DNA of 64,000 bases from a bacterium (GCA_965262815.1 OZ253560.1:2547287-2611286); one strand, 5' to 3'; counted from the stretch's first letter, positions 19,147-50,675 are shown. Notes: generated from the letters alone by a model not told the origin. A program made the numbers and translations.

Positions 19147-20673
19147 TTAAGTCCGGCCGCGCCGGATCCAGGGTTCCAGTACATCGCGGGGGTGATCAGG
19201 AAACCCGTCCACGCCCCTGGACCGGGCGAACTGGTATATTCGCGAGGCCTTCCACTTCGTGTAGGGAAAGGACCGCAGGTTGTCACCTTCCAGGGCGTCC
19301 GAAGCACCCGGATGCCCGCAAGCCTCGACGGCGAGCCGGTGCAGGTCGTTCGCCACTCCCCGGTCGGCCGCGATTCGATTCACCACTTCCGCCGGGTCTT
19401 CAGCCGTGTTGAAAAGCTGCGCCCTGCCGCCGTTGGCCAGGTAAATGTACTTCCAGTCGCCGCTTCGGACCATGATTTTGAACCGGTCAGTCCCCGGCTC
19501 GCCGTAGTAACCGAACAGGTGCTCCCGGGGTGCGGCATCGCCTTCGATCGCGCCGAGCACGTCCACCCCCTCGCGCATTTGGATATGGCCGGCGGCGCGG
19601 GTGGCGATGGCGAAGAGATCGGTCAGGCAGACCAGGTCGCATCGACGGACATCCCTCGGCAGTCGGGCGGGCCAGCTTACCAGGAAGGGCACCCGAGCCG
19701 AGACGTCGAAGAAACTCTCCTTCTGCCACGCGGTATGGTCGCCGAGATGATCGCCATGGTCCGAGAAGAAGCAGATGAGCGTGTTGTCGGCGTCATCGCG
19801 GGCGTCGACGGCGTCCAGTATCCGTCCCAGACAGTCGTCTATGTAGGTGATCTCTCCGTAATAACGGGCCTTGAGCGTCCGTGTCAAGGCATCGTTTATT
19901 TCATCCGCCCAGATGATCCGGTTCATGAAGGGTATCTGCTCGTCCATGTGGTCCACCGCCAGGTCGCCCCGGACCGGGCCGGACATGCGATCGGGATCGT
20001 AGATCCGGTTGAACGGTATGGGCGGCGCGAAGGGGGGATGGGGACCGATGAAGGACACGAACCCGAAATAGGGCCGGCTGCCGGGTTGCCTCAATGCCTC
20101 GATCGAGCGGTCCGCCGCCCAGGATTCCACGGTCAGGTGCGCGGGCAGCGGACTGGCCTGGGGCATGTAGTACATTTCCGTCCGTTCCCCCATCAACGCT
20201 TCGATGTAGTCGAAGTCCGGGTGTTCACGGGCGATCCATCCCGCGTAGGCGTCCCCCTTTCGTTGCTCCGGACTGCTGTAAAGCTCTTCGCTATGTAGCT
20301 GGGACCCATAGCCGATGTCTTCGTTCCACGGAGCCGAGTGGAACTTCCCCACACCGAAGGTGCGGTAACCCTGTGCCGACAGGGTGCGGGCGAGATAGTC
20401 CCCGCAACGGCCTTCGAGCGTTTCGGCCTGTCCCGGAACGGGAATGGAACGGCTGTTGCTGAAAATGCGGGTCGTGGGTGGATCGCATCCCGTACGGATG
20501 GTCGCCCGCGCCGCTACGCAAACCGGACAGGTCGAGTAGCCCTGGGTAAAGGATACGCCCCGCCGCACCAGCCGGTCCATGTTGGGGGTGTGTATGTTGC
20601 CGTTCCCCAGCGCGGCGATGGTATCGAAACGCTGTTGATCCGTCATGATGAACAGGATGTTGGGTTGGGTCAT
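19147..20673 (-). CDS. sulfatase (arylsulfatase family), cytoplasmic; C-X-A-X-R variant
   Basis: IFIMTDQQRFD and …YSTCPVCVAARATIRTG… The N-terminus begins directly at the catalytic domain with no signal peptide. Confidence 0.8.
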   Translation of the reverse strand: MTQPNILFIMTDQQRFDTIAALGNGNIHTPNMDRLVRRGVSFTQGYSTCPVCVAARATIRTGCDPPTTRIFSNSRSIPVPGQAETLEGRCGDYLARTLSAQGYRTFGVGKFHSAPWNEDIGYGSQLHSEELYSSPEQRKGDAYAGWIAREHPDFDYIEALMGERTEMYYMPQASPLPAHLTVESWAADRSIEALRQPGSRPYFGFVSFIGPHPPFAPPIPFNRIYDPDRMSGPVRGDLAVDHMDEQIPFMNRIIWADEINDALTRTLKARYYGEITYIDDCLGRILDAVDARDDADNTLICFFSDHGDHLGDHTAWQKESFFDVSARVPFLVSWPARLPRDVRRCDLVCLTDLFAIATRAAGHIQMREGVDVLGAIEGDAAPREHLFGYYGEPGTDRFKIMVRSGDWKYIYLANGGRAQLFNTAEDPAEVVNRIAADRGVANDLHRLAVEACGHPGASDALEGDNLRSFPYTKWKASRIYQFARSRGVDGFPDHPRDVLEPWIRRGRT

Positions 20674-35754: not shown

Positions 35755-36101
35755 GTGTGTTCTCGATCATAAACAACCAAGTTTGTTACTGCAATCACCA
35801 GTAAATTAGCGGTATTGACGATACCAAACCTAAATCCTACTGACTTGCTAGAAAGTTAAGGCATACTGTGAGTCCCACGATAAATCCAAATGACTTGGTG
35901 CAATGCACATTGCACGATGGTACCGTCAGAGAGGCATTTCAGTGACTAAACAGATCGTTAGAAAAGCAACTAAAAGTGGATTCTTACCCCTCAACACTTG
36001 ATCTCACTTGATAGTAACAAGTGGATCGTCGTTGAAGGTGCATTGATTGACGAATTCCTAACTCAAGGAATCAGGGAAGCATTTATAGAATGTATTCCTT
36101 A

Positions 36102-39100
36102 TTATGATCCTCCTAGCGACTGATATACCCATCCGGGACGTCTTAGCAAGTTGAAAGTATCCAATGTTGTCGGGTTAAAGTCACGACAACTTGCTATCAC
36201 TTCCTCTAGCAATTCTACGGGATGTCTTAAATTCCATAGGGGATGGACCACTAAGACCAGCTTGTTGCCTACTTCCAAACCCGGAAGTAATCCGAAGTCA
36301 CGTGGCCTCGCGGAGAAAGACGTACAAAATGTATCCCGGAGCCTAGCAGCGTGTTCGCACCATCCTTCCAAATCAGGAACGGCGAATACCCCGTTTACAC
36401 CACAGTCAAAGCTGTCAGAATGTAGGCAACGCAACAATGAAACTCCGAGTCTCCAATCCAGCAATCCGTGATACCCCATGTTCCGGTAGTTCCTAAGGCA
36501 ATTGTAGCAAGATGAATCGCAGACCGACCTGTGATCACGGTGTAAGACTGAACCAGCAAAGCTGTCGGACTCGGCATCGGAATTCGTTACCAATGCCAGC
36601 AAGTCTTCCCAATTATCGTAAATGTAATTCGTGAATCCAGCGCCGTTGGCCAAGTGATCGCTAATTACAATTTCGCCTACTTTTGTCCCGTCTCCTAACT
36701 CGACCTGCCTCACGTTACTAATGTCAAACTCGTCGGGATCAATGTCGAGTTCTTCGGCGGCAATAGCTTTGAGAATGAAAGCTGCGGAATAGTAAGCGGC
36801 TTTTATTCCGACTGCTCCTACCGGATCCATCCAAAGACCCGGACGGACTGACTCAGGCCTGATGCGCAACACATCTGTGGATTTAGGCGAAACAATAGCA
36901 ATGGATTCAGTCTCGGTGGTCGTTGTGAAGTTTAGTTGGTCGGCCTCTTGGAACCGATTATCTATCCATTGATTCTCCAACCTTCGCCCGGTACTCCCGC
37001 GTTGTGCTGTACCAACCGCGCCTTTAAACAGGCGTCCTAGCCTATCGTTTACCCGGTACACTCGTCCCGATTTGGAAAAAGAGATCGCGCTATTGGTTCC
37101 AACCGATGCCATACAAGGAACCCCGTCCGATTCAGCGACCGTAGAGGCCCCGGTAGGTAGAAACTCGTCGTCCTCAACAGCATCACTCCCCGGACCAAGG
37201 CTTGCACGGAAAGCCAACGGTACCGCGAATTGGAATGTTCGAAAAGCTGGGTCATTCTCGTTTCCACATCCGCACTTGGGACAGGACTCATCTTGCGGGT
37301 TGTCGTCATACGTAGCAGTATAATGGCACTGTCCGCAACTTGACATCCATCTCCGTGGGGACAATGGATCGTTTGTACTTGTGCACCATCGGTTCTCCCT
37401 TCTTAACAGAGGAGCGGTGAAACCAATTGCCTGGTATACACGCTTATCTTTAGTTCTCTGGGAGCCGGGCGCGAACTCTGTAATGGCTAGGTCAAGGTCC
37501 CTGTGGGTTGTAAGGGCGTCTGTGCTACGCAACCCATGGTAAAATAGCCTGACACGAGAAGGCATACCGTACATGGGTAGAACTGCGTATTCAGCTAACC
37601 TTTCTGCCAAGCCGTCGCCTGTGATTTCAGGATTGGCACACGCTTCCCCAATTTTGATGCAAAGTTCATTCCTCGCATAATTTACAATGTCGCTTTTTCG
37701 AATAGTGCCCGCCACACCTGTACACAAGGCATCTGCGATTGACGTGACATCCGTCGCAGAAGAAAGCCAATTTTTGACTGATTCTCTCCTGTATTGGTCA
37801 TCAATCCAACCGGCTGTCATCCCGAACTCGCCATGACTATCAGGTGGACGCGGGCTTTCCCACCAGGGAACTCCGGCGGCATGGAATGCTCGTCGTAAGC
37901 ATTCCTTTGCCATAAGCCTCTGTGCAATGTCTAGACGCCCCATCGATAGGAAAGGTACTGGCGGAGGATCGCCCGTAATTCGCTCGGGATGGTGATAGTA
38001 GAATTCGTCATGGCTTCGGCCCCGACAGATGGTGAGCACAGTCGCGAAGGGTTGTCCCCGCCGACCAGCGCGTCCTGATCGTTGCTGATAGTTAAAGCGC
38101 ATTGGTGGCATATTCCCTTGTACGACAGCTTGGAGACTGCCAATGTCAACGCCAACCTCCATAGTCGTGGTCACACTGAGCATATCGATTGCATCTACTT
38201 CTCGCACAAGCGGGTGGTACGGATCGTTATTAAGATCTACAGTAATGTCGCGGAACAGACGTTGTCGCTCTGGCTGATTATCCGTTTGGGCAGTAAGTTC
38301 CTCGGCATGCAGGCGTATCGGTTGCCGTAACTGCACCGCTTCCTTCGCGTAGTAGTTCTGCAAGTGCAGGTCACAACAAGTAGTGTTCGGATCACCCGGC
38401 AGTATATCCTGGCAGAATTGGCTAGTACAGATTCCTGGATTATATAAATGGGGGCGTCGGCATCTCGTGCAACGCCATACTGGATCCGTAGGGAGCGCGA
38501 CACGGACCAGCAGTCGGCGCGGATTGATTTTGAAATGCGTATGGCCACCGATAAAGCAAATTGCATCCCGTACTGTTTCCAATAAAGCGTCTTCACCAAC
38601 ACCGTGTACGTTCGCGCACTTTCTGACATAATTACGAATACCAGCCCGAGCGGTTGTCCAGTTCGGCCAGTCATCAATGGGGTAGGCGCCTGGATCTACT
38701 TGTGGGTAGCGATACAAATCCCCTAGCATTCTAATCGTGCCGTTGAGAATGTCCACAAGTTGGCCTTTAGCCAAGTCACATTCACCAGCTTTTTGCTCCA
38801 TTACCGAGTCCGGTAGGTCCGACTTGGCATAACCGAGGCCTGCCGACTCGAACCCGAAATACAGTCTAGAAAACAACACAGAGCAGATTTCACTGGTTAC
38901 TTTAGCACGCAGTTTCTCGCGTCCCCTTGTACTTCCAGATGGTGACAGATCAGGTTTCCAGCCACCGCCAGGACGAGAGAAATCGAACAGGGTCGTCCAT
39001 TTTTGCCAAGCATCATCATATTTAAACTCTTGAAACAGTACGTTTTGACCAGCTGGATTAACGCCGAGAGTCTTCAAACGTTGGATTAATGCCCCAGTTC

Positions 39101-41846
39101 CTCGTTCGGTGTTTTCGTCCTCAAAAAGTAAGCGCAGATGGACAGTGCGGCTCGCACCACGATCAGCTACTAGGGCTAGTTTCGCACGGGCATCTGCAAT
39201 GGTTTGTTCTGCCACCTCGCGCAATGCTTCAGGAAGGCTCGCCAGTGCGTTGCTATCGACAGTTTCTTGTTGTAAAAGTTCGCGAAAGTCGGATAGCAGA
39301 ACCTGTTGTATATTGGTGAGTTCCAAAGCTTCGCGGGAGGTAGGAGACCCAGTAGCTCGAAGTTTGGCTAACAAGGCTGGCTCCTCTATCGTAAATCTTC
39401 GCAATTCATCGTACATGGCCTCCCGCACTAAGTCCGAATAGTGCGACCTTTCTATCCCATTGGCGAGTTCTGCCGCATCCTGTCGACTGTCGGAGAAGAC
39501 GACTAGTTTCTTAGCATCTTCTGGCAGGAAATAGAACATTTCCTTGGAAAGAATCTGAGTGATACGACCAAAACCAGTGCGAAATCCCCGGATTGGAGAC
39601 TTTCGATACTGGCGGAATCTGTAATTCGCCGCGCACAACGGGCAAGTTGCGGGTAGGGCTCCTATTTCGCTCTCAGGCAAATTCGGAACTACATATGCGT
39701 AACCACGCACAGTACCCGTGGTGCCTAGCTTGACTTGCCCTGTAGCTGGGTCAAGGCTAGCAGCCATCCACCGAGCTTGGACTGTACTGCTACTGTTAAT
39801 GGGCTGTGGCCACTGACGTGAATCTGGGTCTAATTGCTGTCCACCGGATGGCCAGAAAACCCCGAAATCCCGGTAGGTTCGTCTGTCGACAAAGCGGGCT
39901 GATTGCCGATCTGGCAAACCCTCTATATCAGCATCAGTGATTAGAAGCTCCCAGCCACGATTTGCATCCAGTTCGTTCCTGCTACCTCCGAACATCGTCG
40001 TACCGCAAACTTCGCAGTAGAGTAGTTCCAATACCCGGTGGGATTCATCCAGATTATCGCACAGGATACGCGAGTTTTGAAAAAGTTTTCCGGAGGTACG
40101 ACCACCTCCCATTTCGGCAGAACTACAACCACATCCAGGTTGAGTGCAAGCCCAGAGGCCTTCGATATTTTTGAAGAACCAGTGTAGTCTGAATCTGGGC
40201 ATTCGTTCGCTGGCCCCACACAGCTGACGGGCGATTAGAAGGCCGCGGGTAGCCGACCGCACAACATCGTCTTCACAGTCGGTGCCGAACAAACGTTGTC
40301 CGAATTCACTCAAGCGAGTTGCTCTGGTTACGCCGTCTCTGGAACAAGCCGCCAGCATACGCGCACTCATCTGCAAATTTTCCACCTCCAGGCAATCTTC
40401 CAGTTTCCAGTCGCCTCCTTCCTGCACTTCGCCTGTTGAACTTAGAAATGCTGTCGCTACAGCTTTTGCATCTGGCTCCTTGTCCGCTGCGGTTTCTAGT
40501 TCTGCAATAGCAACAAAAGGCTCTACCTGAAGCTTACTCGACGTATCCCCGCCTGAAGTGTCCTCTGGATTGCCTGGAATTACCTGTAAACTAGTCCATT
40601 GGGAGCCAAAGAACTCGGATAGGTATCGTAGGCTATCGTCATCGTTTGGCTCCAACGACGCACTGGAACCAATAATGCGAAGTTTTGGGCTGTCTGGGTA
40701 GAGACCTAAGCGGAGCAGGAGTAACTTTAAGAGGTACGCGACTTCGGTTCCTGCTGTGCCGCGATGGAGATGTAGTTCGTCAATGATGAGATGGAAAACG
40801 CTGCCGTCTTTTTCCAGCCATTGCTTCGTTTTTTCGAAAATGCCGCTGTCTGCGTCTCGCATTAGCATCATACTGAGCATGCTAAAGTTCGTGACCAAGA
40901 TATCTGGTGGGTGGTCTTGCATATCCCATCGGCAGCGCATTTCTGCACCGTCCAGTCGTGGGAAGAAGTAACGGGCTTCCGTTTTCCCTGTATCGAAAAC
41001 GTGTTTTTCTGCCGCTATTGCGGCACCTTCGGCTTCCTTCAAGAGTGTTTTCAATCGCTCAATTCTCTGGCGGTCTGGTCTCTGTACGCCATTGGCGTTT
41101 GGTTGTAATAGCTCATGACCAGCTACTGGTGCATCTGAGTTATATCGTCCGAAGTAGAATCGATTTCCGTCGCGATTTCGGTCGAACCACTCCCGGACTC
41201 CAGGCGAGTCTAAGGCGGAGCGCAAACGGCTTAGCTGGTCTTCTACCAAAGCATTCATAGGATATACAATCAAACCGCGAATCGCGGCATCCCGGTTCTC
41301 ATTGCCACGCTGAGGGATTCTCAGACTTCTTTGAGCTATGTTTCCTGCAGGCCAACATTTATTGCGCCAGGCCTCATTACGCCACCAATCGTCTTGATGC
41401 GCCAGCCTTGGTTGCGGCTTGTCCCAGCCAGAGGATTCTTGGCACAGGTAGGCGAATAGCGGCAATAAGAATGCCTCGGTTTTTCCTGAGCCGGTTCCGG
41501 CTGTAACGACAGCGTTTGTCCCAGAAAGCACTTTGCTTAACATTTCGGCTTGATGACTATAAAGCTCGAAGTCGCCGATCAGCCCAAGAGACGTAAGCTC
41601 TTGGAAAGCAGTAATTCCCTCCGACCCCATACTAGGCAAATCCACCGCAGATAAATCCCTGATTTTCTTTCCTGAAGTCCGATACCTTGGAATGGGTTCT
41701 ATCCACGGTTCTTGAGAAATAGTACCGGGCTCCCTTAGTAATTTCTCGCGTTCCACCTCAAGACCCGGGTACTGGGTTCCAAATGCAGTTTTCACGTAAT
41801 CGATGTAGCTGTCGCGGACCTTATCAAAAGCATTTATGAAATCCAT
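36102..41846 (-). CDS. giant split DExH helicase with C-terminal DUF1998-type zinc-finger domain (DruE-like Druantia signature protein)
   Basis: 1914 aa. Helicase motif I TAGTGSGKT (~aa 117), II IIDELH (~aa 355), III GSSAS. After a ~750-aa insertion, motif V TTTMEVGVDIG and motif VI QRSGRAGRRG (~aa 1200-1230). Cys pairs CGQCHY…CPKCGC and the C-terminal CDSSCYNCLRNY…LLDWRLG resemble the DUF1998/MrfA zinc-finger domain. The start overlaps the upstream gene by 13 nt. Confidence 0.7.
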   Translation of the reverse strand: MDFINAFDKVRDSYIDYVKTAFGTQYPGLEVEREKLLREPGTISQEPWIEPIPRYRTSGKKIRDLSAVDLPSMGSEGITAFQELTSLGLIGDFELYSHQAEMLSKVLSGTNAVVTAGTGSGKTEAFLLPLFAYLCQESSGWDKPQPRLAHQDDWWRNEAWRNKCWPAGNIAQRSLRIPQRGNENRDAAIRGLIVYPMNALVEDQLSRLRSALDSPGVREWFDRNRDGNRFYFGRYNSDAPVAGHELLQPNANGVQRPDRQRIERLKTLLKEAEGAAIAAEKHVFDTGKTEARYFFPRLDGAEMRCRWDMQDHPPDILVTNFSMLSMMLMRDADSGIFEKTKQWLEKDGSVFHLIIDELHLHRGTAGTEVAYLLKLLLLRLGLYPDSPKLRIIGSSASLEPNDDDSLRYLSEFFGSQWTSLQVIPGNPEDTSGGDTSSKLQVEPFVAIAELETAADKEPDAKAVATAFLSSTGEVQEGGDWKLEDCLEVENLQMSARMLAACSRDGVTRATRLSEFGQRLFGTDCEDDVVRSATRGLLIARQLCGASERMPRFRLHWFFKNIEGLWACTQPGCGCSSAEMGGGRTSGKLFQNSRILCDNLDESHRVLELLYCEVCGTTMFGGSRNELDANRGWELLITDADIEGLPDRQSARFVDRRTYRDFGVFWPSGGQQLDPDSRQWPQPINSSSTVQARWMAASLDPATGQVKLGTTGTVRGYAYVVPNLPESEIGALPATCPLCAANYRFRQYRKSPIRGFRTGFGRITQILSKEMFYFLPEDAKKLVVFSDSRQDAAELANGIERSHYSDLVREAMYDELRRFTIEEPALLAKLRATGSPTSREALELTNIQQVLLSDFRELLQQETVDSNALASLPEALREVAEQTIADARAKLALVADRGASRTVHLRLLFEDENTERGTGALIQRLKTLGVNPAGQNVLFQEFKYDDAWQKWTTLFDFSRPGGGWKPDLSPSGSTRGREKLRAKVTSEICSVLFSRLYFGFESAGLGYAKSDLPDSVMEQKAGECDLAKGQLVDILNGTIRMLGDLYRYPQVDPGAYPIDDWPNWTTARAGIRNYVRKCANVHGVGEDALLETVRDAICFIGGHTHFKINPRRLLVRVALPTDPVWRCTRCRRPHLYNPGICTSQFCQDILPGDPNTTCCDLHLQNYYAKEAVQLRQPIRLHAEELTAQTDNQPERQRLFRDITVDLNNDPYHPLVREVDAIDMLSVTTTMEVGVDIGSLQAVVQGNMPPMRFNYQQRSGRAGRRGQPFATVLTICRGRSHDEFYYHHPERITGDPPPVPFLSMGRLDIAQRLMAKECLRRAFHAAGVPWWESPRPPDSHGEFGMTAGWIDDQYRRESVKNWLSSATDVTSIADALCTGVAGTIRKSDIVNYARNELCIKIGEACANPEITGDGLAERLAEYAVLPMYGMPSRVRLFYHGLRSTDALTTHRDLDLAITEFAPGSQRTKDKRVYQAIGFTAPLLRRENRWCTSTNDPLSPRRWMSSCGQCHYTATYDDNPQDESCPKCGCGNENDPAFRTFQFAVPLAFRASLGPGSDAVEDDEFLPTGASTVAESDGVPCMASVGTNSAISFSKSGRVYRVNDRLGRLFKGAVGTAQRGSTGRRLENQWIDNRFQEADQLNFTTTTETESIAIVSPKSTDVLRIRPESVRPGLWMDPVGAVGIKAAYYSAAFILKAIAAEELDIDPDEFDISNVRQVELGDGTKVGEIVISDHLANGAGFTNYIYDNWEDLLALVTNSDAESDSFAGSVLHRDHRSVCDSSCYNCLRNYRNMGYHGLLDWRLGVSLLRCLHSDSFDCGVNGVFAVPDLEGWCEHAARLRDTFCTSFSARPRDFGLLPGLEVGNKLVLVVHPLWNLRHPVELLEEVIASCRDFNPTTLDTFNLLRRPGWVYQSLGGS

Positions 41847-42832
41847 CGCTTTCCTTTCGCTTCGATGGGTTGTTGATTAAGTTTACTCGCTACCTCATTA
41901 AAGACACTAGGTGGTACGTCGTTATACACATAGGAACGTTGTGCTTCATTAGATGGCACTAGCCCTAGCACAGTTGAGCAATGTCCTCTGCACAGTCCAA
42001 AGGCTCTTGAGAATAAAGTAGGCAGAGGAGCACCGTATGGAACGCTAGCTCTCTTGATAGCCATATCGTATTGCAATACCCGGTGCGATGATAGGGCGAG
42101 GACAGCGTAACGTCCCCAGTCCAGTTCAACTTCTGCGGACTCACGATTCCGCCATAGGCGATAGTACCAGATGGATGTTACTGGGTTTTGGTACCTGCTT
42201 AACCGTAATTTTGAATCTATCCTGCTATTAGGTAGAAACTGCAATCTTTCCGTATCAAAATCCTGGCGACGCCAGTTCATCTCTGCTTCGTTTGACCACA
42301 CCAGACCTCGGCAATACTCTTGGAGTGAAGCAGACACTCGCGCCAATGAACGGGCAGGTGGGAAGTCGATAAAGCGGAGGTTAACACTGGCGGCAACATT
42401 ATGGATTTGAATGGAACTATCGGCACATAGTTCTATGCGTGTTGGCACGTATGGACACGATGCTAAATGTGGCCCCACGATGGTCTCAAAGCCACCTATA
42501 GTTGCTGCCTGTTGCAGGTTCTCAACACTCGCTGGAGACCTGGCTCCGCACAAAACTGCTCTGGCTACACCGCGACCTGGAAGTGCGGCTAGCACCGGGG
42601 GAGCGACGACGACCTTGATTTCATCCGAATCAAATTTCATGTCGATGTGACCGAGACAACTCAATGTGCGGAGAGCTTGCCACCGTGCGCTAGCGACAGG
42701 TTCATCAAATTTGGACTGCCCGTCTAATACCCCTCTCCTATGTACCTCCTCAAACCATCGCTTGACAATGGACCAAGGAACTTTACGCTTAGCAGAGAGT
42801 GCGAATAAGAAGATGTCACCACTGTTATACAC
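41834..42832 (-). CDS. hypothetical protein, DruG-like position in Druantia-type operon
   Basis: 332 aa with no recognisable motif. GTG start (verified: gtg tat aac agt ggt gac = MYNSGD) overlaps the upstream stop by 8 nt, and the stop overlaps the druE-like start, indicating translational coupling. Confidence 0.55.
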   Translation of the reverse strand: MYNSGDIFLFALSAKRKVPWSIVKRWFEEVHRRGVLDGQSKFDEPVASARWQALRTLSCLGHIDMKFDSDEIKVVVAPPVLAALPGRGVARAVLCGARSPASVENLQQAATIGGFETIVGPHLASCPYVPTRIELCADSSIQIHNVAASVNLRFIDFPPARSLARVSASLQEYCRGLVWSNEAEMNWRRQDFDTERLQFLPNSRIDSKLRLSRYQNPVTSIWYYRLWRNRESAEVELDWGRYAVLALSSHRVLQYDMAIKRASVPYGAPLPTLFSRAFGLCRGHCSTVLGLVPSNEAQRSYVYNDVPPSVFNEVASKLNQQPIEAKGKRWIS

Positions 42833-44873
42833 GTCTGGACAACTCTTGTATCTGATTCCACAACGAGCGTTCGTCCGGTTGTTCTGGCTGTAAGATGCGC
42901 TTGCGCCAGTGCCAAGTAACTTTCTTCCAGTCTTTCAATTTCCGACGTGTTGGGGTATCCAACGATCCAAGCGATATTGCCCCCAGCATTTCGCTAACAA
43001 AAACTGCTTTCCATTTCTTAGGTCGGATTTTTGTAATCACCCATGTTGGAATCCAATCGTTGGGGAAAGGCTCAGATGGCCAAGCAATGATTTGTCCGGG
43101 GTGCTGCCCGACCAGAAAACAACGCATCCTACACAGTTCGTATTCTAAATCCTCGAATACCTCCGCGGCTGAAGTTGTCGTTTCGACGATCTGGCCCTTG
43201 ATATATGCACCAGAGACAGATGTTTTATCACTATCAAATTGTGAGCTGATGGCGGAGGAATCTACGAAAATTTCGGGTTCTCCCGTAGGCAGGCTGTAGT
43301 CGCTTGTTAAAAATAGTGACTGCCGACACAGAACTAATTGGTCGGACCGCGCCTCTATGGTGATCCGGGACCCATTTGGAAGGTCACTTGGTAGAGTAAA
43401 AATACCGGCGGTAGCAGGGGATGATAGTAATACTTGATTGCAATAAACTTCAGTAGTCGGTGCCCCTCCGATTAACCGTACTGATGGAGGTGCGAAGAAA
43501 AAAAAGTTATTCCCATTGCCGCTACGGATTCCGCCTACCAACAGGAGTCGCAACCCCGATTGAAATGTCAGAATCGGAAACTCGTTTTTAACTGCCTCAT
43601 CGTCTATAGCGGTCTCGACGCTAGCAAATCGCCATGAATTCGGTAAACCCTGCACTATATCGAGACCATGAAACTCCCTGCATTGCGTAGTTGCCCATCG
43701 TTGCAAACGTGGCCAAGCATCCTCGGGGTAACTCAGGTAAAAAGGTTGTCCCAAGGGTAGAGTGGGTGTGTCAACAAGATCACTAATCCCTTCTGCCATA
43801 CCGCTGATGAATATCCTGACCGGATAGCCCTTAAGCCTCAACAGGTAATTGGGAGATTTCGACCGCATCGTTTTGCTGATACGCCAATCAAGCATGGATG
43901 CGTCAAAATGCTCTCCTGTGTTGTTGTTTTTTATTGGCAACGACCACCCATTCACGTCCTCATCGGCATGGAGTACATGATCTAGAGTAAGACCTGCTTC
44001 AGGAAACTCGTGATTTAACCTGCACCTGATAGATGATTTGGCAATTCCTGTAACCTGATCCAGCTCGATGCAAATCCGCAGTCCGCCGAGAGTTTGAGCC
44101 GATTGACCAAGGTTTATTTCTGACCCTGGCATCGTCCCATCCCAAGCCTCCAGTTCGTCATTGACAGCGTCAATTAACGCCCTGTGAAGTTCATCTTGAG
44201 GATTCTCCGCCATTAGGATAGTTCTGGTCCTCATAAGTCGTCTTGCGATATTACTACGCAACGCCATAGCGATTTCATCATCCGGGTGACTTGATGCCGG
44301 GTCTAAACCTGCTTTAAAGAAGACCCGTGGCAACACCTGTCTGTCTTGCTCTACTAGTATCGCTTGTGAAAGTGGATAACCTATGTGGACATGTCCGCCT
44401 ATTGAACGGGATTGGAAAATGCCTAGTTTACCTTGTCGGTCGAATACTGACCAGTTCTCCAGGTCATCCCAGAGTTCCCGCATTCGGTCGAACCAGCGCG
44501 GTGGACCACTTCTACCTTCATACATTAGTTGCGTCCATAGCCTGGGATAATAGGCGTGAGGTGCGAAATCTCCTTCAGCGCCGCTAGCGAGCACGAAAAA
44601 ACACAGATAGCCAACGTAGGGCGGGATATCTTGATTCCGGATCCTCCACCCAAGGAATTCATGGTAAGCTCGTTTACATATATGTTTTCCGTTCAGGTAT
44701 GGCGCCGATGGTTGCCCAGCGACTGCAGTACGGAAAGAACCAGCTTCCGGGATATCCCGACTTATCTCGTCGATAAGATCCTGGTTGACGTAAAGGTGTA
44801 CGTTATATCCCTCCATGTCGGGATTAAAGAACCAGGTAGCTAACTTATTGTTCCATTGACTATAGGCGTTCAT
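42825..44873 (-). CDS. hypothetical protein, DruF-like position in Druantia-type operon
   Basis: 682 aa with no recognisable motif. ATG at 44873..44871 verified. 27 nt downstream of the relic end of the glycosylase gene. Confidence 0.55.
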   Translation of the reverse strand: MNAYSQWNNKLATWFFNPDMEGYNVHLYVNQDLIDEISRDIPEAGSFRTAVAGQPSAPYLNGKHICKRAYHEFLGWRIRNQDIPPYVGYLCFFVLASGAEGDFAPHAYYPRLWTQLMYEGRSGPPRWFDRMRELWDDLENWSVFDRQGKLGIFQSRSIGGHVHIGYPLSQAILVEQDRQVLPRVFFKAGLDPASSHPDDEIAMALRSNIARRLMRTRTILMAENPQDELHRALIDAVNDELEAWDGTMPGSEINLGQSAQTLGGLRICIELDQVTGIAKSSIRCRLNHEFPEAGLTLDHVLHADEDVNGWSLPIKNNNTGEHFDASMLDWRISKTMRSKSPNYLLRLKGYPVRIFISGMAEGISDLVDTPTLPLGQPFYLSYPEDAWPRLQRWATTQCREFHGLDIVQGLPNSWRFASVETAIDDEAVKNEFPILTFQSGLRLLLVGGIRSGNGNNFFFFAPPSVRLIGGAPTTEVYCNQVLLSSPATAGIFTLPSDLPNGSRITIEARSDQLVLCRQSLFLTSDYSLPTGEPEIFVDSSAISSQFDSDKTSVSGAYIKGQIVETTTSAAEVFEDLEYELCRMRCFLVGQHPGQIIAWPSEPFPNDWIPTWVITKIRPKKWKAVFVSEMLGAISLGSLDTPTRRKLKDWKKVTWHWRKRILQPEQPDERSLWNQIQELSRRV

Positions 44874-44899
44874 GGTCGGTCATCCCGAATGTGTTGTAT

Positions 44900-45019
44900 T
44901 CATACAATCGGCCCTTGTTTGGCATACACACACTTTGCTGCAATGGGGCAATCGATACATAGAGGTGTCCGTGATTTGCAGATAAGGGCTACAAAGTCAA
45001 GCAATCCGTAATTATGCTC
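44900..45019 (-). pseudogene. 3' fragment of the IS-split HhH-GPD glycosylase gene ([4Fe-4S] loop)
   Basis: Reading the minus strand from the TSD copy at 45021 gives EHNYGLLDFVALICKSRTPLCIDCPIAAKCVYAKQGPIV*. C-X6-C-X2-C-X5-C is the EndoIII/MutY/Mig Fe-S cluster loop, in frame with the upstream part once the IS and one TSD copy are removed. Confidence 0.8.
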
Positions 45020-45062
45020 CTTGATGTTACCCCGTTTTCGTGGACGGTTTACGGTTTGGGAT

Positions 45063-45875
45063 TCAGGCAGTTTTCTTGAACCTCCTTTCGAAGTTCATGG
45101 GTGAGAGGTATCCAAGGGAAGAGTGTCTTCTCCGGGTGTTGTAGAAGCCCTCGATGTATTGGAACAGGGCGAGTCTGGCGTCGGCCCTGGTGGTAAAGCG
45201 CCTGCGATCGAGCAGTTCGCATTCCAGGCTGGCGAAGAAGCTCTCGCACAGCGCGTTGTCGTAGCAGTCGCCGACCGAACCCATTGAGGGTCTGACCCCG
45301 GCCTGTCTGCATCTTTTGCCGAAGGCCACCGAGGTGTACTGCGATCCCTGGTCGCTGTGGTGGATCACCGCGTGGGGTCTGCGCATTCCAAGGGCCATGT
45401 CGAGGGCGTCTGTGACCAGTTCGCTTCGCAGGTGGTTGGCCATGGACCAGCCGACGACGCGACGGCTGAAGGCGTCTATGACCACCGAGAGATAGAGGAA
45501 GCCCGCATGGGTAGGCACGTAAGTGATGTCGGCGACCCACAGCCGATCCCTGACAGGAGCGCTGAAGTCCCGGTTGACCAGGTCCGGCGCCTTCTTGCTT
45601 TCTTCGGATCGCCAGGTGGTGCGCACGGCTCTGCGGCGTGATACTCCACTGATAGCGGCCATGCGCATCAGGCGGGCAACGCGTTTTCGTCCTGCGCGTA
45701 TGCCCGACGCGCGCAGTTCGGCATGGATGCGCGGCGCGCCGTAGGTACCGTAGGAGCGTTGATGGATCGAGCGGATCCTGCTAAGAAGCATAGCATCCTC
45801 TCTGGTCCTCTTGGAGACCACCCGCCTGAGCCAGACGTAGTAGCCGCTGGGGGAGACATCCAGCAGACCGCACAT
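45063..45875 (-). CDS. IS3-family transposase OrfB (DDE integrase core)
   Basis: …YPIRRMCGLLDVSPSGYYVW…, DDE catalytic region (…HHSDQGSQYTS…) and C-terminal YNTRRRHSSLGYLSP. The frame stays open upstream in the -1 frame relative to orfA. Confidence 0.9.
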   Translation of the reverse strand: MCGLLDVSPSGYYVWLRRVVSKRTREDAMLLSRIRSIHQRSYGTYGAPRIHAELRASGIRAGRKRVARLMRMAAISGVSRRRAVRTTWRSEESKKAPDLVNRDFSAPVRDRLWVADITYVPTHAGFLYLSVVIDAFSRRVVGWSMANHLRSELVTDALDMALGMRRPHAVIHHSDQGSQYTSVAFGKRCRQAGVRPSMGSVGDCYDNALCESFFASLECELLDRRRFTTRADARLALFQYIEGFYNTRRRHSSLGYLSPMNFERRFKKTA

Positions 45876-45907
45876 CCGGCGAATAGGATAGGAGGCCTGG
45901 CTTGCCT

Positions 45908-46219
45908 TTATGAACGAGAAGACTCGGGTGGGGTCTCGGTCTCCCGGGCGAACCAGGCCGCGGCTTTTGCCAGGATCTCTCGATCCATCCTGAGCTGTCT
46001 GTTCTCACGGCGCAGACGACGCAGTTCGGCCCGTTCTTCGGTTCTCAGGCCGTCTTCACGCCTGCCTTGGTCCAGGTCGTCCTGTTTGACCCAGTTGCGG
46101 ATGGCTTGGGCGGTGGGCTCGAACTCTTTGGCCAGCGCTTCGGGACTACGGCCGGCGCGAACGAGATCGACCATCTGCTGGCGAAAGGCCGACGGATAGG
46201 GGGCACGGGATCTGGGCAT
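45908..46219 (-). CDS. IS3-family transposase OrfA (HTH)
   Basis: 103 aa with a helix-turn-helix and leucine-zipper-like RRLRRENRQLRMDREILAKAAAWFA. orfB is in the -1 frame. A-rich slippery stretch CAAAAG around 45964-45970. Confidence 0.85.
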   Translation of the reverse strand: MPRSRAPYPSAFRQQMVDLVRAGRSPEALAKEFEPTAQAIRNWVKQDDLDQGRREDGLRTEERAELRRLRRENRQLRMDREILAKAAAWFARETETPPESSRS

Positions 46220-46231
46220 GTCACGCTCCTT

Positions 46232-46849
46232 TCAAACACAAGAAGTTACATGTCCACTAAACCGGGTCAACTCCACCTTATAGTACTTTTTTGGTAGTAG
46301 TGCCCTTGCGAAGTCCCAGATGATCTCAGCTCGCCTTATATCCGTTGGTGGTTTTAATCCTGTAAGCCGAGAGATTGTACGCACTATACTAAGGTCCACC
46401 ACTGGTACACGCTGTCCAAAGGCAAAGCTAGCGACAGCATGCGCAGTATAGATACCTACGTACGGTAATTTGACTAAATCATCGAGTTGAGTTGGCAGCT
46501 CTCTGGTTTGGGTTAATGACGAAGCGACGTCGAGAAGAGCTCTGACTCTTTGTTTTCCAAACCCTAATACCGCAATCATTTCGAACAGTTCGTCCGGATC
46601 AGCGTTAGACAACTTGCCAGCATCACTGTACTGGCCTATCAGCATCGGCCACACCATGGCAACTTTGTCAGCATGGGTCTGCTTAAGCAAGATTTCCGCT
46701 ATTAGGATTCCGAAAGGGCTGTTTTTTTCAGCTCTCCAAGGGAATGGCCTACCTAAAGTGGAGTACATTTGGACAAAGAAATCTTCTGCTATACCCAGCC
46801 TTGATGGATCGTAAACTGCCGCTTCATTCTGATTGGTCATGTGGATCAT
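46232..46849 (-). pseudogene. HhH-GPD superfamily DNA glycosylase (Mig/EndoIII-like), 3' end truncated by the IS3 insertion
   Basis: HhH-GPD motif LPYVGIYTAHAVASFAFGQRVPVVDLSIVRTISRLTG, with Tyr at the EndoIII Lys120 position and the catalytic Asp retained. The last 13 codons plus the stop (46275..46232) are IS-derived. The native Fe-S loop is displaced to 44900-45019. Confidence 0.75.
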
Positions 46850-46876
46850 CTAGAAAATGCCCCGTTTATCCGTATG

Positions 46877-47962
46877 CTATGCGCGCACAGAAACAAACCC
46901 AAAAGCTTCTACTATGGTGTTTGCGATCCCCTCAGCAAGTGGTGGTGGCACAGCGTCAGAAACCAAACGGACTTGTTCTGTAAATGTTCCCTCTAGCTGG
47001 TACGAATGTGTGAAGCCTTGAAGCAACATGGCTTCATAGACTGACAGACGCCTATGACAGTTAGGATGGACATGAACTTCGTTATGCCCGTATGCAACGG
47101 TGTAGCTGGGAGCATCCCATGACAGGACCTTGAAACTCAGACCATTGCTGCTACCTGCCAACAGACTACCGTTTGTAAATCTCGGGGACCGTGGAACCAT
47201 CGCGACATGGTTAGGATGATGCGGAATGTTTTTTGGCTCGAGCTTCTTTGCACAAAACGTAGGTTCAGGAAGGTTCTTAATAGCATTCTCAATCGCAGGG
47301 GGCGGATGACAATTCCCATCTAGTAGTCGAAGTTCAGTTTCCGGATGACGATTTCTATTTACCCCAACAGCGATCAGCCTCTTGCGATGCTGCGGCACAC
47401 CAAATGTCCCAGCATCCAGAATATTACTCATAACTTCGAACCCGGCTTGCCTAACTTCTTCCTTGAATTCACAAAAAGCTGTCTTGTGCTTAACGTGAAT
47501 GAGGCCAGGTACGTTTTCGAATACGAAGAAACCGATATCATAACGCTTTGCAAACGCGTTAATGATGCTGGCGTAACTGTCCAGCAATTTGCGTCTAGGA
47601 TCGTTTTCAGCTTGGTGGACATTAGATGAAGAAAAGGCTTGGCACGGTGGTCCTCCGATTATCCCTATAGGTTCCAGACCTTCAGCACAGTCTTCCCACA
47701 AATCTAGGATGGTCGTTGGCTCTACCGCAGCCAGATCAATAGAGCTGACCATGGTATTGGGGTGGTTACGCTTATAGGTTGCGATGGCAGCACGGTCAAT
47801 ATCGATTGCTAGAACTGGATGGAAACCTACCTTTTCAAAACCATGATCTAGCCCTCCTGCGCCACAGAACAGACTCATTACGGGCCAGCGGCCAACGGAT
47901 TTGGGAGAATTAGCGGGTTTTATCGAGCTCTCGGCGTAGTCCAAGAGATTCTCCTTCGTCAT
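46877..47962 (-). CDS. DNA (cytosine-5)-methyltransferase (druM-like)
   Basis: Motif I FCGAGG, motif IV GGPPCQAFS, motif VI ENVPGL and motif VIII QHRKRLIAVG. Confidence 0.9.
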   Translation of the reverse strand: MTKENLLDYAESSIKPANSPKSVGRWPVMSLFCGAGGLDHGFEKVGFHPVLAIDIDRAAIATYKRNHPNTMVSSIDLAAVEPTTILDLWEDCAEGLEPIGIIGGPPCQAFSSSNVHQAENDPRRKLLDSYASIINAFAKRYDIGFFVFENVPGLIHVKHKTAFCEFKEEVRQAGFEVMSNILDAGTFGVPQHRKRLIAVGVNRNRHPETELRLLDGNCHPPPAIENAIKNLPEPTFCAKKLEPKNIPHHPNHVAMVPRSPRFTNGSLLAGSSNGLSFKVLSWDAPSYTVAYGHNEVHVHPNCHRRLSVYEAMLLQGFTHSYQLEGTFTEQVRLVSDAVPPPLAEGIANTIVEAFGFVSVRA

Positions 47963-48974
47963 TTTAAGGCGTTAATCTGATCTTGGCAATATGTCTACAA
48001 GTCCGAATTAGACGATCATTTCCAATCACTGTTTTTCTTAAAGCTCATCTAACGGCTGGGACAAGAGCTTCTACTTGTCGATATAGTGTATGCATTACAG
48101 CCTCGAAGAGAGAAGTATCATATACCATACGTCTGAGGTACTGTTCCCAAGTAACTCACACATCGCTAAAACTTGGATATGGCAGAACTGCCCGGTTCAG
48201 TGAATTGGACCCCACACTGTACACTTCTCATGCAACAACGAGTTGACCCCAGTTAAGTCCATATGGTCCCTGCACGTACCAACATCTTACCACAAGTCTT
48301 AGTAGTCGCACACACTTGCATAGATTCCATGGTGTATTTCGAGGACATCGTGCAGATAAACTATAGGCTGCCTCTTGAAGCAGTGAAGCCCACTCGACCA
48401 GAATACCCTGAGCAAGCGGGGAAGACGGCCGTGCATGACAGGTAAGCTCTCGACTACCACCAATCATTTGTCTCCGCCGTAGTATTCATGTAAGTGCGGT
48501 AGTCCATGGTCATCAAAATACTAACGTATGACAATTCTATAGAAACAATAGAGTTCAGGGATTCTCATCATGAGGTCGCGCACCCAGCACTACTTGCGAT
48601 ATTGACTTGCCAGAAAGTTGTTTGTAAAAAGCATTCGGGTAGGATTCAATATCTTCTCCCCAAGCCCCAGACGGGGTTATACGTGGTGTTACAAAGCAAC
48701 CGCAGTCGTTCCACGCTATGGACACACCACATCTTGGTAGATATAACAGATCATCGTATCCCGCAGTACTGTCCGAGTACCTGAGCCATTTACGATATCC
48801 TTCTCGCGTTTACGCCTCGGTTGCCCGGATCATTTTTTACCACCTGGTTCGTTCATTTACAGGCTTTTCGAATCTGCCGTCGTCGCAGTGTTCCTATTTC
48901 AGACGAGAGTATTACTGCCCGATGCCGACGGCACAACAAATAGGCTGAAAGGGAAGCTCTGGCGAGAAGGACAC

Positions 48975-50675
48975 CTACCGCCGTATATACAGATCCGTAA
49001 TCGTAGAGTTGTCGATGAAGAAGGGTTCCTGACCCATGGAGTCCTTTTGCCAGCCCGCCAGCCAGGGTTTGCGGAGCTGCAGGAAGTAGTCGTGGTACAG
49101 GAACACGCCGCCCACGTCTTCGACCAGGATCCGTTCCGCCTCGTTGTACATCTCGAATCGGCGTTCCTCGTCGGTTTCCCTCGCCGCCTCATCAATGAGC
49201 CGGTCGAACTCTGCGTTCATCCAGTCGTGACGCCCCGCTCCCACGGGCTGAGAGTGCCAGACCATGCCAAGGAGGTTGTGCGGATCGGGGAAATCGAACA
49301 TGAAGGGGATCATGCTGAAGTCGATCCGGTACTGGGCCATGGCTTCGCTGTAGACCCGGTTCTCCATGTTCCGTACGCCCACTTTAAGGCCCAGGTTGTT
49401 GGAAAGCATGCCCGATATGGCCTCGGCGGCCATGATCCGGTATGGATCGTTCCGCAGCCAGATATCCACGGACGGGAACCTCCTTCCGTTAGGGTATCCT
49501 GCCTCCGCCAACAGGCGCCTGGCCAGTTCTGGATCGAATCGCTGCACATCTTTCAACTTATCACCTGAATAACCTGGAAAACCCGGCGGAAGCATGGTGT
49601 ACGCGGGCAGGGCCGTACCCCGGAGCACGATATTGCAGAGTGCGTCCCGGTCGATAGCGTGGCTGATGGCCTGTCGCACCCTGTGGTCACTGAAAACGCC
49701 TTCGCGCGTCCGGAAGAAAAGGTAGATGGCATTGAAATCCATGTACTTGTGCAGTTCGGAACTCAGCTCAGGATCTCCCTCGACGCGGTTGAGATCCCGC
49801 ACGTCGATCTGCACCAGGTCCAGTTCGTCGTTCTCGTAGGATAGGAGCCCGGTGTTGCCCTGGTTCTTGAAGATGGAGTGGATCTCCGATAAATAACCCT
49901 TCACCGGCCCGTTGTAAAATGTGTCAAGGGATAGCGTGAGGCGCTCGCCGATACGCCAGCCTTCGACCTTGTAGGAGGAGTTACTGACGACGTTTTCGTC
50001 GCTCGCCCAGCGAGGACCGAATCTCTCCACCTGCCAGCGCGGTACGGGAATCGACGTGAAAAACGCCGCTATCATCGGCAGGTAGGGGCAGGGGCCCTCG
50101 GTCTCGATCACGAGGGTCATGTCATCCTCCGCGTACACGCCCACCGAGCTAGGATCGGTGTTCTGCCCCGTGTTGAACGCCCGGGCGCCCTTGATATTGT
50201 AGTAGAAAAAGGCGTACCCGCTGCCCGATGCGGGGTCCAGCATGCGCTTGTAGCTGTATTCGAAATCGTGGGCCGTCACCGGCCGGCCGTCGCTCCACCG
50301 GGCGCCGGACCGCATCTGAAAAGTCCAGCGGGTCTGGTCCTCCGACGAAGTCCATTCGGAAGCGGCGCCGGGGATCACGCGGTTGTTGTGGTCCAGCATG
50401 GTCAGACGTTCGAAGAGGAAGACGATGCCGCCCACCTCGTAGATGGCCATGCCGATGTCCAGATTGGTCGGTTCGTCGTTCAGAAAACGGAAAACCTGGC
50501 GGTCCGGGGGCGCCGCATCCGCGGGCATCGCCTTGCCGACTGCGTTGCGCACCTGCGCTTCCGGGTGACTTGTAAACACGGAGAGGCCGCAGATCGTCAG
50601 AAGCAGCGCAGTTACAAGTATGGCAGCATATTTCATGTGTGTTACCACCGCGTTATGAGTATTCAGCCTCATCAT
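48975..50675 (-). CDS. ABC transporter substrate-binding protein, family 5 (paralogue of 24315-26102)
   Basis: 566 aa with a signal peptide (likely start at Met14, MKYAAILVTALLL). Shares blocks with the other SBP (…WSDGRPVTAHDFE… / …NYDFPDPH…). No transporter partners. Confidence 0.7.
   Translation of the reverse strand: MMRLNTHNAVVTHMKYAAILVTALLLTICGLSVFTSHPEAQVRNAVGKAMPADAAPPDRQVFRFLNDEPTNLDIGMAIYEVGGIVFLFERLTMLDHNNRVIPGAASEWTSSEDQTRWTFQMRSGARWSDGRPVTAHDFEYSYKRMLDPASGSGYAFFYYNIKGARAFNTGQNTDPSSVGVYAEDDMTLVIETEGPCPYLPMIAAFFTSIPVPRWQVERFGPRWASDENVVSNSSYKVEGWRIGERLTLSLDTFYNGPVKGYLSEIHSIFKNQGNTGLLSYENDELDLVQIDVRDLNRVEGDPELSSELHKYMDFNAIYLFFRTREGVFSDHRVRQAISHAIDRDALCNIVLRGTALPAYTMLPPGFPGYSGDKLKDVQRFDPELARRLLAEAGYPNGRRFPSVDIWLRNDPYRIMAAEAISGMLSNNLGLKVGVRNMENRVYSEAMAQYRIDFSMIPFMFDFPDPHNLLGMVWHSQPVGAGRHDWMNAEFDRLIDEAARETDEERRFEMYNEAERILVEDVGGVFLYHDYFLQLRKPWLAGWQKDSMGQEPFFIDNSTITDLYIRR

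Follow-up and report, generated by a model that had tools for sequence, protein, structure and literature searches.

A probable Druantia-family operon in which a C5-cytosine methylase and a Mig-type mismatch glycosylase accompany a DruF-DruL-DruE helicase core

Two described Druantia systems lie closest to the locus examined here. Type II (Doron et al. 2018) is a co-directional set of DruM, DruF, DruG and DruE that has been reported only in Proteobacteria (PMC8565338), and type IV, as defined in PADLOC (Payne et al. 2021; PMC8565338), consists of DruE, DruF and DruL without DruM and DruG. Type III, which pairs DruH with DruE, has neither a methylase nor host methylation, and its DruE is described as a helicase-nuclease with PLD-like nuclease domains; the 2026 studies on this type describe DruE as acting or loading on DNA that is forked or contains single-stranded DNA (ssDNA). 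With regard to type I, a preprint reports a new host N6-methyladenine (m6A) motif in cells expressing the system, and PMC12458937, in which Druantia types I and II appear as 'Type IV CoCoNuT', describes an inactive Vsr-like C-terminal domain in the DruE of both types and an inactivated McrB-like fold in their operon partner. Here we analyse a 64,000-nucleotide stretch of a bacterial genome (GCA_965262815.1 OZ253560.1:2547287-2611286), hereafter the window, in which five co-directional genes on the minus strand between 36102 and 47962 appear to form a further variant of this family, headed by a cytosine methylase and interrupted by an insertion sequence (IS).

In our judgement, at a probability of roughly 0.7, this locus is a Druantia-family anti-phage operon of the order druM-mig-druF-druL-druE, in which a methylase with its repair glycosylase stands before a helicase core and in which the glycosylase gene, mig, has been split by the IS. 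All five genes are found in the list of open reading frames (ORFs) of the window where the original prediction had placed them. The overlaps of 8 nt between druF and druL and of 13 nt between druL and druE follow directly from the ORF coordinates, and since 26 nt separate the stop of the restored mig from the ATG of druF, the packing supports the single operon that had been proposed. The figure of 27 nt originally given for the latter spacing was about right, but it applies only once the two halves of the glycosylase frame are joined, with the IS taken out. By its gene content the locus reads as a hybrid of types II and IV (DruM, DruF, DruL and DruE), because DruL replaces DruG while a type IV core is headed by a type II-style methylase. 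Families were assigned with PADLOC models, Pfam and NCBIfam profiles, searches of PDB sequences and AlphaFold2 (AF2) models.

The helicase core and its place among described systems

The last gene of the operon, druE (36102-41846, minus strand), encodes a YprA/MrfA-like superfamily 2 (SF2) helicase of 1914 residues with a putative C-terminal Zn-binding (MZB/DUF1998-like) region. The PADLOC model DruE2 matches residues 2-1911 with 1794 bits (E 0) and DruE4 gives 1751 bits, and the check on which membership in the Druantia family had been made to depend is thereby borne out at full length. Pfam recognises DEAD and Helicase_C in the protein, and its helicase motifs are intact (GSGKT at 119, DELH at 356 and QRSGRAGR at 1255). 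By far the closest structure is PDB 9wae_A (E 3e-220, 737 bits), a 1970-residue 'Helicase' with companion entries 9waf, 9wds and 9wdu-9wdy; our literature search found no paper mentioning this series. Other relatives in the PDB are 9tu7_Y, the DruE of type III-A, whose match (E 9e-30) lies in the helicase core around motif VI, and MrfA/YprA 6znp (E 6e-10).

The DUF1998-like zinc finger expected at the C-terminus, in contrast to the Helicase_C domain expected with it, was recovered weakly. PF09369 (MZB, formerly DUF1998) scores 19.1 bits (E 0.0022), below its gathering score of 24.2 bits, and does so only when the C-terminal 615 residues are scanned alone; it covers positions 4-80 of the 80 in the profile and stops at the cluster C1776-x3-C1780-x2-C1783. 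Residues 1504-1525 hold another ribbon, CxxC...CxxC. Pfam detected no nuclease domain in DruE, including in the separate scan of its C-terminal part. Past the Zn cluster, the tail of about residues 1785-1914 (window 36102-36490) contains LVLVVHPLWN, which by eye is like the strand-His motif of the Vsr core; the Pfam Vsr profile gave no match in this tail.

The two proteins encoded upstream had been put forward as DruF and DruG, and the first of these assignments stands: the 682-residue product of druF (42825-44873, minus strand) is matched over its full length by DruF4 (521 bits) and DruF2 (PDLC00021, 455 bits). The 332-residue product of the following gene (druL, 41834-42832, minus strand) is DruL and not DruG. 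It matches DruL4 with 201 bits and, at a weaker level, the last 260 residues of the long DruF2 models (about 1010-1030 residues); as nothing else in PADLOC matches it at E<=10, its identification as DruG was rejected. DruG models matched none of the proteins scanned. Pfam and NCBIfam return nothing for either DruF or DruL, and profile searches of the two against PDB sequences were likewise empty, with no informative fold match. Their AF2 models (predicted local distance difference test, pLDDT, of 81 for DruF; pLDDT of 86.8 and predicted template modelling score, pTM, of 0.86 for DruL) contain no nuclease, ATPase or McrB-like fold; DruL has winged-helix domains inside.

An exhaustive profile search with DruL (E<=0.001) gave 1464 clusters at 50% identity, a few of which form the C-terminal part of longer proteins (about 1000-1100 residues). 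Natural fusions of DruF and DruL, in which the DruF4 and DruL4 matches of PADLOC fall in one chain, are represented by P0405 (1099 residues) and P0480 (1006 residues), and because such fusion proteins exist, DruF and DruL very likely act together. The long DruF2 models seem to describe fusions of this kind, and the division between types II and IV seems in part to be an artefact of gene fission.

Set beside type IV, the locus has the matches to DruE4, DruF4 and DruL4, the same gene order, overlapping junctions and a wide phyletic spread, but type IV is defined without DruM, whereas a DruM-like methylase and a Mig-type glycosylase belong to the operon here; DruK is, moreover, absent from it. 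With type II the locus shares co-directional genes matching DruM2 (248 bits), DruF2 and DruE2. Unlike type II, it has no DruG, it carries a standalone DruL and an extra glycosylase gene, and its nearest relatives are found in Chloroflexota and not in Proteobacteria. The type II label first attached to the locus is therefore right for three of the four defining genes and wrong for DruG. Type III has in common with it a homologous, YprA/MrfA-like DruE helicase core, and differs in its DruH, in its lack of a methylase and in the nuclease domains of its DruE. As for 'Type IV CoCoNuT', the operon here has no counterpart of the inactivated McrB-like GTPase homologue (CnuB) with an extended coiled coil that is part of that system.

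The methylase and its repair partner across related loci

The gene heading the operon, druM (46877-47962, minus strand), is predicted to encode a C5-cytosine DNA methyltransferase of 361 residues; in a public annotation the start is placed 6 codons downstream, which leaves 355. Pfam DNA_methylase matches it with E 2.5e-52, its best solved relative is M.HaeIII (PDB 1dct, E 1e-29), and it retains intact the catalytic motifs FCGAGG, PCQ (106-108), ENV (149) and QHRKR (191). The generic MTase_II model of PADLOC gives 237 bits, as against the 248 bits of DruM2.

Between druM and druF lies mig, whose 5' part (codons 1-191) occupies 46276-46849 and whose detached 3' part (codons 192-230 and the stop) occupies 44900-45018, both on the minus strand. 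The product had been taken for a Mig-like glycosylase, and the restored protein of 230 residues supports this. Pfam HhH-GPD matches with E 5e-12, and the best match in the PDB, which outranks EndoIII and the catalytic domains of MutY, is Mig.MthI (1KEA, annotated as a 'possible G-T mismatches repair enzyme'), at E 5e-24 and aligned to residue 217 of 221. Its sole PADLOC match, PDLC03398 ('Type II nicking endonuclease'), is listed beside the Vsr model PDLC03397. The residues that distinguish Mig from MutY have been set out previously (PMC2714593), and F27, E42, A50, Y126 and D144 of Mig.MthI correspond to F36, E52, A60, Y134 and D152 of the restored protein, where Y134 (Y126 in Mig.MthI) occupies the position of Lys120 in EndoIII and D152 is the catalytic Asp. 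The Cys4 loop of the Fe-S cluster (Cys205/212/215/221) is collinear with that of 1KEA, and no MutY C-terminal or NUDIX-like domain is present in the 230 residues. The restored gene accordingly holds the HhH-GPD fold, the catalytic Asp and the [4Fe-4S] Cys4 loop together; in the IS-bearing genome the last of these is detached. Judged by its sequence, the enzyme is best read as an analogue of Vsr that would repair the deamination of 5-methylcytosine (5mC).

The conservation of this arrangement was followed in a survey of GTDB species genomes, which were scanned with a DruF alignment to give 80 loci; their neighbours were classified by ORF clustering and profile searches, with about 3.3 kb of downstream flank covered, also for loci without a methylase. 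The closest of these loci belong to Chloroflexota (45-63% DruF identity), and the DruF relatives are mostly from metagenome-assembled genomes of Dehalococcoidia and other Chloroflexota, with further representatives in Cyanobacteria, Actinomycetota, Acidobacteriota, Planctomycetota, Bacillota and the ANME/Methanosarcinales archaea. The DruF-DruL-DruE triad is kept in nearly all of the 80 loci with enough sequence. A C5 methylase lies within the flanks of 50 of the 80, that is, of 50 of the 65 that could be scored; 15 have no methylase within at least 2.5 kb of flank on each side, and 15 more are not evaluable. Among the 50 methylase loci, 43 also have an enzyme of T:G-mismatch repair, which is Mig-type in 30 and Vsr (PF03852) in 13, never both (0/50), and the methylase is alone in the remaining 7. 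The Mig-type loci comprise 17 with the order seen in the window (methylase, separate Mig-type gene, druF), 3 in which the methylase and an unfused Mig-type gene follow druE, and 10 in which methylase and glycosylase form a single ORF.

These single-ORF fusions occur in both orders, three as methylase-Mig and seven as Mig-methylase (L070:18841-20589 on the minus strand, L060 and L078; L031:7481-9232 on the plus strand, L027, L033, L040, L042, L048 and L050), beside Druantia cores in Acidobacteriota and Actinomycetota, and Pfam confirms a C5 methylase joined to an HhH-GPD/Fe-S glycosylase in L070 and L031. In 7 of the 17 loci with the gene order of the window, mig and druF share 4 nt, the stop of one running into the ATG of the other, and all five genes stand in this order in Chloroflexota as well as in Acidobacteriota. 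When the restored Mig protein served as the query, the matches formed a tight subfamily, in which all of the 120 matches listed are at least 52% identical, and three homologues picked because they appeared to fall outside the DruF match set all proved to lie in methylase-Mig-DruF-DruL-DruE operons (3/3). We take the subfamily, on this comparative evidence, to be dedicated to Druantia operons, and the glycosylase to be a conserved, operon-embedded accessory as opposed to a one-off insertion.

Such a partnership follows a known logic, summarised for Dcm-Vsr and for Mig.MthI in PMC2714593, in which a C5 methylase adjoins an enzyme of a T:G-mismatch repair family. What sets the present pair apart is that it sits inside a helicase-based defence operon, as opposed to a classical restriction-modification system or a housekeeping setting, and that it is fused in 10 relatives, while sister loci use Vsr itself. 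The gene for Mig.MthI presumably also adjoins a methylase in Methanobacterium thermoautotrophicum. Two unrelated T:G-mismatch enzymes alternate in one slot of the operon and one of them is fused to the methylase, and it is for these reasons that we favour a partner in the repair of deamination. The original prediction had set the glycosylase outside the described Druantia loci. Our literature search did find no paper that links the two, and PMC12458937 with its supplements does not contain the word glycosylase; the gene is, however, conserved and alternates with Vsr in related loci, and a methylase with its own T:G-mismatch repair glycosylase is a partnership not yet described for Druantia.

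A second variable slot follows druE. A PD-(D/E)xK/Cas4-like gene (PADLOC DruK, Pfam PDDEXK_1) occupies it in 24 of the 80 loci, and also in L088 and L089 (for example at L003:18614-19795, L060:18680-19801 and L088:19493-20623), and in L087 an HNH_2 nuclease (19583-20473) takes the place of DruK. The window has neither a DruK nor an HNH gene after druE. The triad can also be found with no methylase on a complete Aphanizomenonaceae plasmid (CP150887.1, 12049-20832), among a type III-B CRISPR Cas10, a SocA/MazF toxin-antitoxin, integrases and a WYL protein; this defence-island setting supports a role in defence, and the plasmid shows that the core can exist without the methylase.

The insertion in the glycosylase gene and the surrounding island

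The element that splits mig is 1254 bp long (45022-46275, minus strand). It has two ORFs, orfA (45908-46219; HTH_Tnp_1, a helix-turn-helix, HTH, domain) and then orfB (45063-45875; HTH_21 and an rve DDE transposase domain, rve E 1.6e-26), ends in TG...CA within imperfect inverted repeats that match at 18 of 25 positions, and is flanked by a 3-bp target duplication, AGG, at 46276-46278 and 45019-45021; by these features it is a member of the IS3 family. A megablast search of the element against plasmids returned only partial matches of about 70% (Ralstonia, Cupriavidus) and no named IS. As its GC content of 0.608 equals that of the host, we take it for a resident IS that hopped into a foreign island.

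The IS had been treated as intergenic, which proved to be incorrect, for it lies within the glycosylase gene and cuts it after codon 191, so that the whole Fe-S domain is detached. The called ORF of 205 residues (46232-46849) ends in 12 codons derived from the IS. Past the element the same glycosylase frame resumes and runs to its stop (...EHNYGLLDFVALICKSRTPLCIDCPIAAKCVYAKQGPIV), with the C-x6-C-x2-C-x5-C loop of the [4Fe-4S] cluster, and removal of the IS together with one AGG copy yields the protein of 230 residues, which aligns collinearly with intact homologues. An exact-protein look-up retrieved the corresponding empty-site allele on a metagenomic contig, L083 (ENA ERZ25069191 ctg464475, 10,989 bp), which carries the whole operon without the IS at 99.9% identity on both sides. 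Its junction (...TATAAGGAGCATAAT...) matches the predicted pre-insertion sequence exactly and fixes the boundaries of the IS to the base. A further contig, L084 (ENA ERZ25071132 ctg607400), has the empty junction and, 321 bp further on, the 3' end of the IS, and probably is a collapsed assembly of two co-existing alleles. Given an IS-free allele of 99.9% identity and a contig that holds both states, the insertion is recent and polymorphic. As the IS takes away the domain for the Fe-S cluster, the glycosylase is probably inactive in the IS-bearing genome, to judge from the truncated reading frame.

Other Druantia operons in the survey are interrupted as well. In two loci of Acidobacteriaceae about 4 kb lie between a cut-short druF and druL (L057:2491-6476 and L059:11674-15635), and a locus of Latescibacterota has a similar interruption of about 1.6 kb (L069:12040-13647).

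The operon belongs to an island of about 13.2 kb including the IS (35755-48975), which extends between the stops of aroA and of an SBP_bac_5 gene, both named by Pfam. Fine GC profiles step sharply at these two stops (at about 35755 and 48975), and the low GC content of the island that had been described earlier is confirmed, with 0.497 for the locus minus the IS and 0.602 for the rest of the window. By this measure the island is foreign to its host and horizontally acquired. No tRNA gene was found within the window, nor an integrase domain among the scanned ORFs of the island and its flanks. The druE stop faces aroA convergently over 348 nt, a gap that holds no nuclease gene. At the other end, about 1 kb between druM and the host SBP_bac_5 gene (47963-48975, GC 0.43-0.50) is unannotated and could be a promoter region or a degraded island gene; Pfam matches neither of the two longest ORFs in it (87 and 92 residues, plus strand), and neither a cognate restriction endonuclease nor a controller gene was found there. 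A classical Type II restriction-modification system was rejected, given that no nuclease domain occurs in the scanned island proteins. A promoter and terminator scan across the locus gave nothing above the shuffled expectation and is uninformative on transcription across the IS.

Proposed mechanism and alternative explanations

It is reasonable to postulate the following sequence of events. DruM, whose catalytic motifs are intact, would methylate chromosomal cytosines of the host at C5 within a sequence motif. The resulting 5mC would at times deaminate to thymine, and the Mig-type glycosylase would then excise the T of the T:G mismatch so that base-excision repair could restore C:G; the mutational cost of the methylase would be offset in this manner, as it is by Vsr for Dcm and, supposedly, by Mig.MthI. 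Homology, conserved residues, gene fusions and the alternation with Vsr all point to this repair step. DruE, as an ATP-driven YprA-like helicase, may together with DruF and the winged-helix DruL engage invader DNA that is unmarked or that exposes ssDNA or ends, and unwinding of or translocation on this DNA could block its replication, with degradation left to the variable nuclease found after druE elsewhere (the PD-(D/E)xK enzyme DruK, or HNH) or to host nucleases. For this third step we reason by analogy with the methylation mark of type I and with type III DruE on ssDNA-containing or forked DNA. Lastly, a resident IS3-family element has entered after codon 191 of mig, with the loss of the Fe-S domain and the parting of druM from druF, druL and druE.

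Several observations weigh against this explanation. At least 15 loci whose flanks reach 2.5 kb or more on each side, as well as plasmid CP150887, have a DruF-DruL-DruE core without a methylase; the core evidently needs no dedicated methylase, which weakens the step in which unmethylated DNA is sensed, and the methylase module may modulate the action of the core and not determine it. No nuclease gene is present in the window and neither DruF nor DruL has an informative fold match, and as such the nuclease step, if there is one, must come from elsewhere. Two positions of the Mig.MthI pocket differ in the restored glycosylase, R47 being replaced by Q57 and L187 by a Tyr, which is neither the Leu of Mig nor the Gln of MutY (Q182), and the substrate preference could differ with them. 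The DUF1998/MZB match falls short of the Pfam threshold (19.1 against 24.2 bits), no experiment validating PADLOC type IV turned up in our literature search, and it is from sequence that we infer the methylation motif, the specificity for T:G and the protection against phage that we ascribe to the variant.

The methylase-free loci can also be taken to mean that the methylase and the glycosylase are an autonomous cassette, namely an orphan methylase with its deamination repair, which stands beside a methylase-independent DruF-DruL-DruE system and has no part in distinguishing self from non-self. The methylase is found elsewhere in some loci, upstream or downstream and on either strand, and the DruM2 score is close to that of the generic MTase_II model, both of which agree with such independence. 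The spacing of the genes is nevertheless that of an operon, with 4-nt overlaps of mig and druF in 7 of 17 loci; members of both Chloroflexota and Acidobacteriota have all five genes in this order; the three independently chosen members of the Mig subfamily all lie in Druantia operons; and neither a cognate restriction endonuclease nor another partner was found on the island. We consider an autonomous cassette unlikely.

With still less confidence it may be proposed that the glycosylase, or Vsr in sister loci, is itself an immune effector, which would introduce abasic sites or nicks into invader DNA, where this is unmethylated, modified or mismatched, either as damage or as points of entry for DruE. 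A mismatch or abasic-site enzyme that nicks or gaps non-self DNA, on which DruE, DruF and DruL then load, would amount to a base-excision-triggered helicase immunity and, if true, would supply the effector step that this nuclease-less locus is missing; we regard this, too, as rather improbable. DNA glycosylases of the PabI family can act as restriction enzymes (reviewed in PMC10273834), type III DruE, according to the 2026 studies, needs ssDNA or forked structures for entry, and a Vsr-like domain has been reported at the C-terminus of DruE in types I and II (PMC12458937). The window contains no other nuclease, and the pairing of the Druantia methylase with a Mig-type enzyme or Vsr is near-obligate and sometimes a fusion. 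The closest homology of the enzyme is, however, to a mismatch-repair glycosylase, with the residues of a Mig-type pocket; its exchange for Vsr, a T:G-specific repair nickase, and its fusion to the methylase are what the classic pairing of a methylase with a repair enzyme would lead one to expect; and the IS-disrupted allele persists with druF, druL and druE intact.

There is similarly little to recommend the view that the locus is a decaying, non-functional remnant, in which the IS has destroyed the glycosylase and silenced druF, druL and druE by polarity. It is true that the IS removes the Fe-S domain and puts 1.25 kb between druM and druF, and that no promoter-like signal above chance precedes druF. 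Insertion sequences often supply outward promoters, though, and druM, druF, druL and the 5.7-kb druE are uninterrupted with their methyltransferase and helicase motifs intact, while the flanks of the recent insertion are still 99.9% identical to the IS-free allele. In any case, decay of this kind would describe the condition of the locus, whatever its nature, and does not conflict with the Druantia operon proposed above. A variant of DISARM class 2, which has in common with the locus a C5 methylase, a YprA-like helicase and a putative DUF1998-like region (with weak matches to DrmMII, 152 bits, and to DrmA, 31 bits), was rejected as scarcely credible, as the original prediction had also argued, since DrmA reaches at most 31 bits against 1794 for DruE, there is no PLD (DrmC) domain in the proteins scanned and no DrmE match, and DruF and DruL are specific to Druantia.

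The original prediction called the mechanism of Druantia unresolved, a statement that holds for types II and IV, which are without an established mechanism, and that is outdated for type III in view of the 2026 studies. Our findings give no insight into how the helicase core acts against phage. They do blur the PADLOC boundary between types II and IV, where DruL equals the C-terminus of the long DruF2 models and DruM occurs together with DruL, and this matters for annotation. They also show the slot after druE to hold interchangeable nucleases. The IS-disrupted and intact alleles, 99.9% identical and from related metagenome samples, constitute a natural experiment. The embedded glycosylase represents a known principle, that of a methylase with T:G repair, in a context not described before. 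A DruF-DruL-DruE lineage that has been described as methylase-free usually has a C5 methylase, and that methylase is almost always accompanied by a T:G repair enzyme. As such, the survey speaks for 5mC as an epigenetic mark of self in this branch of Druantia, and a mark of this kind implies a mutational cost high enough to select for dedicated repair.

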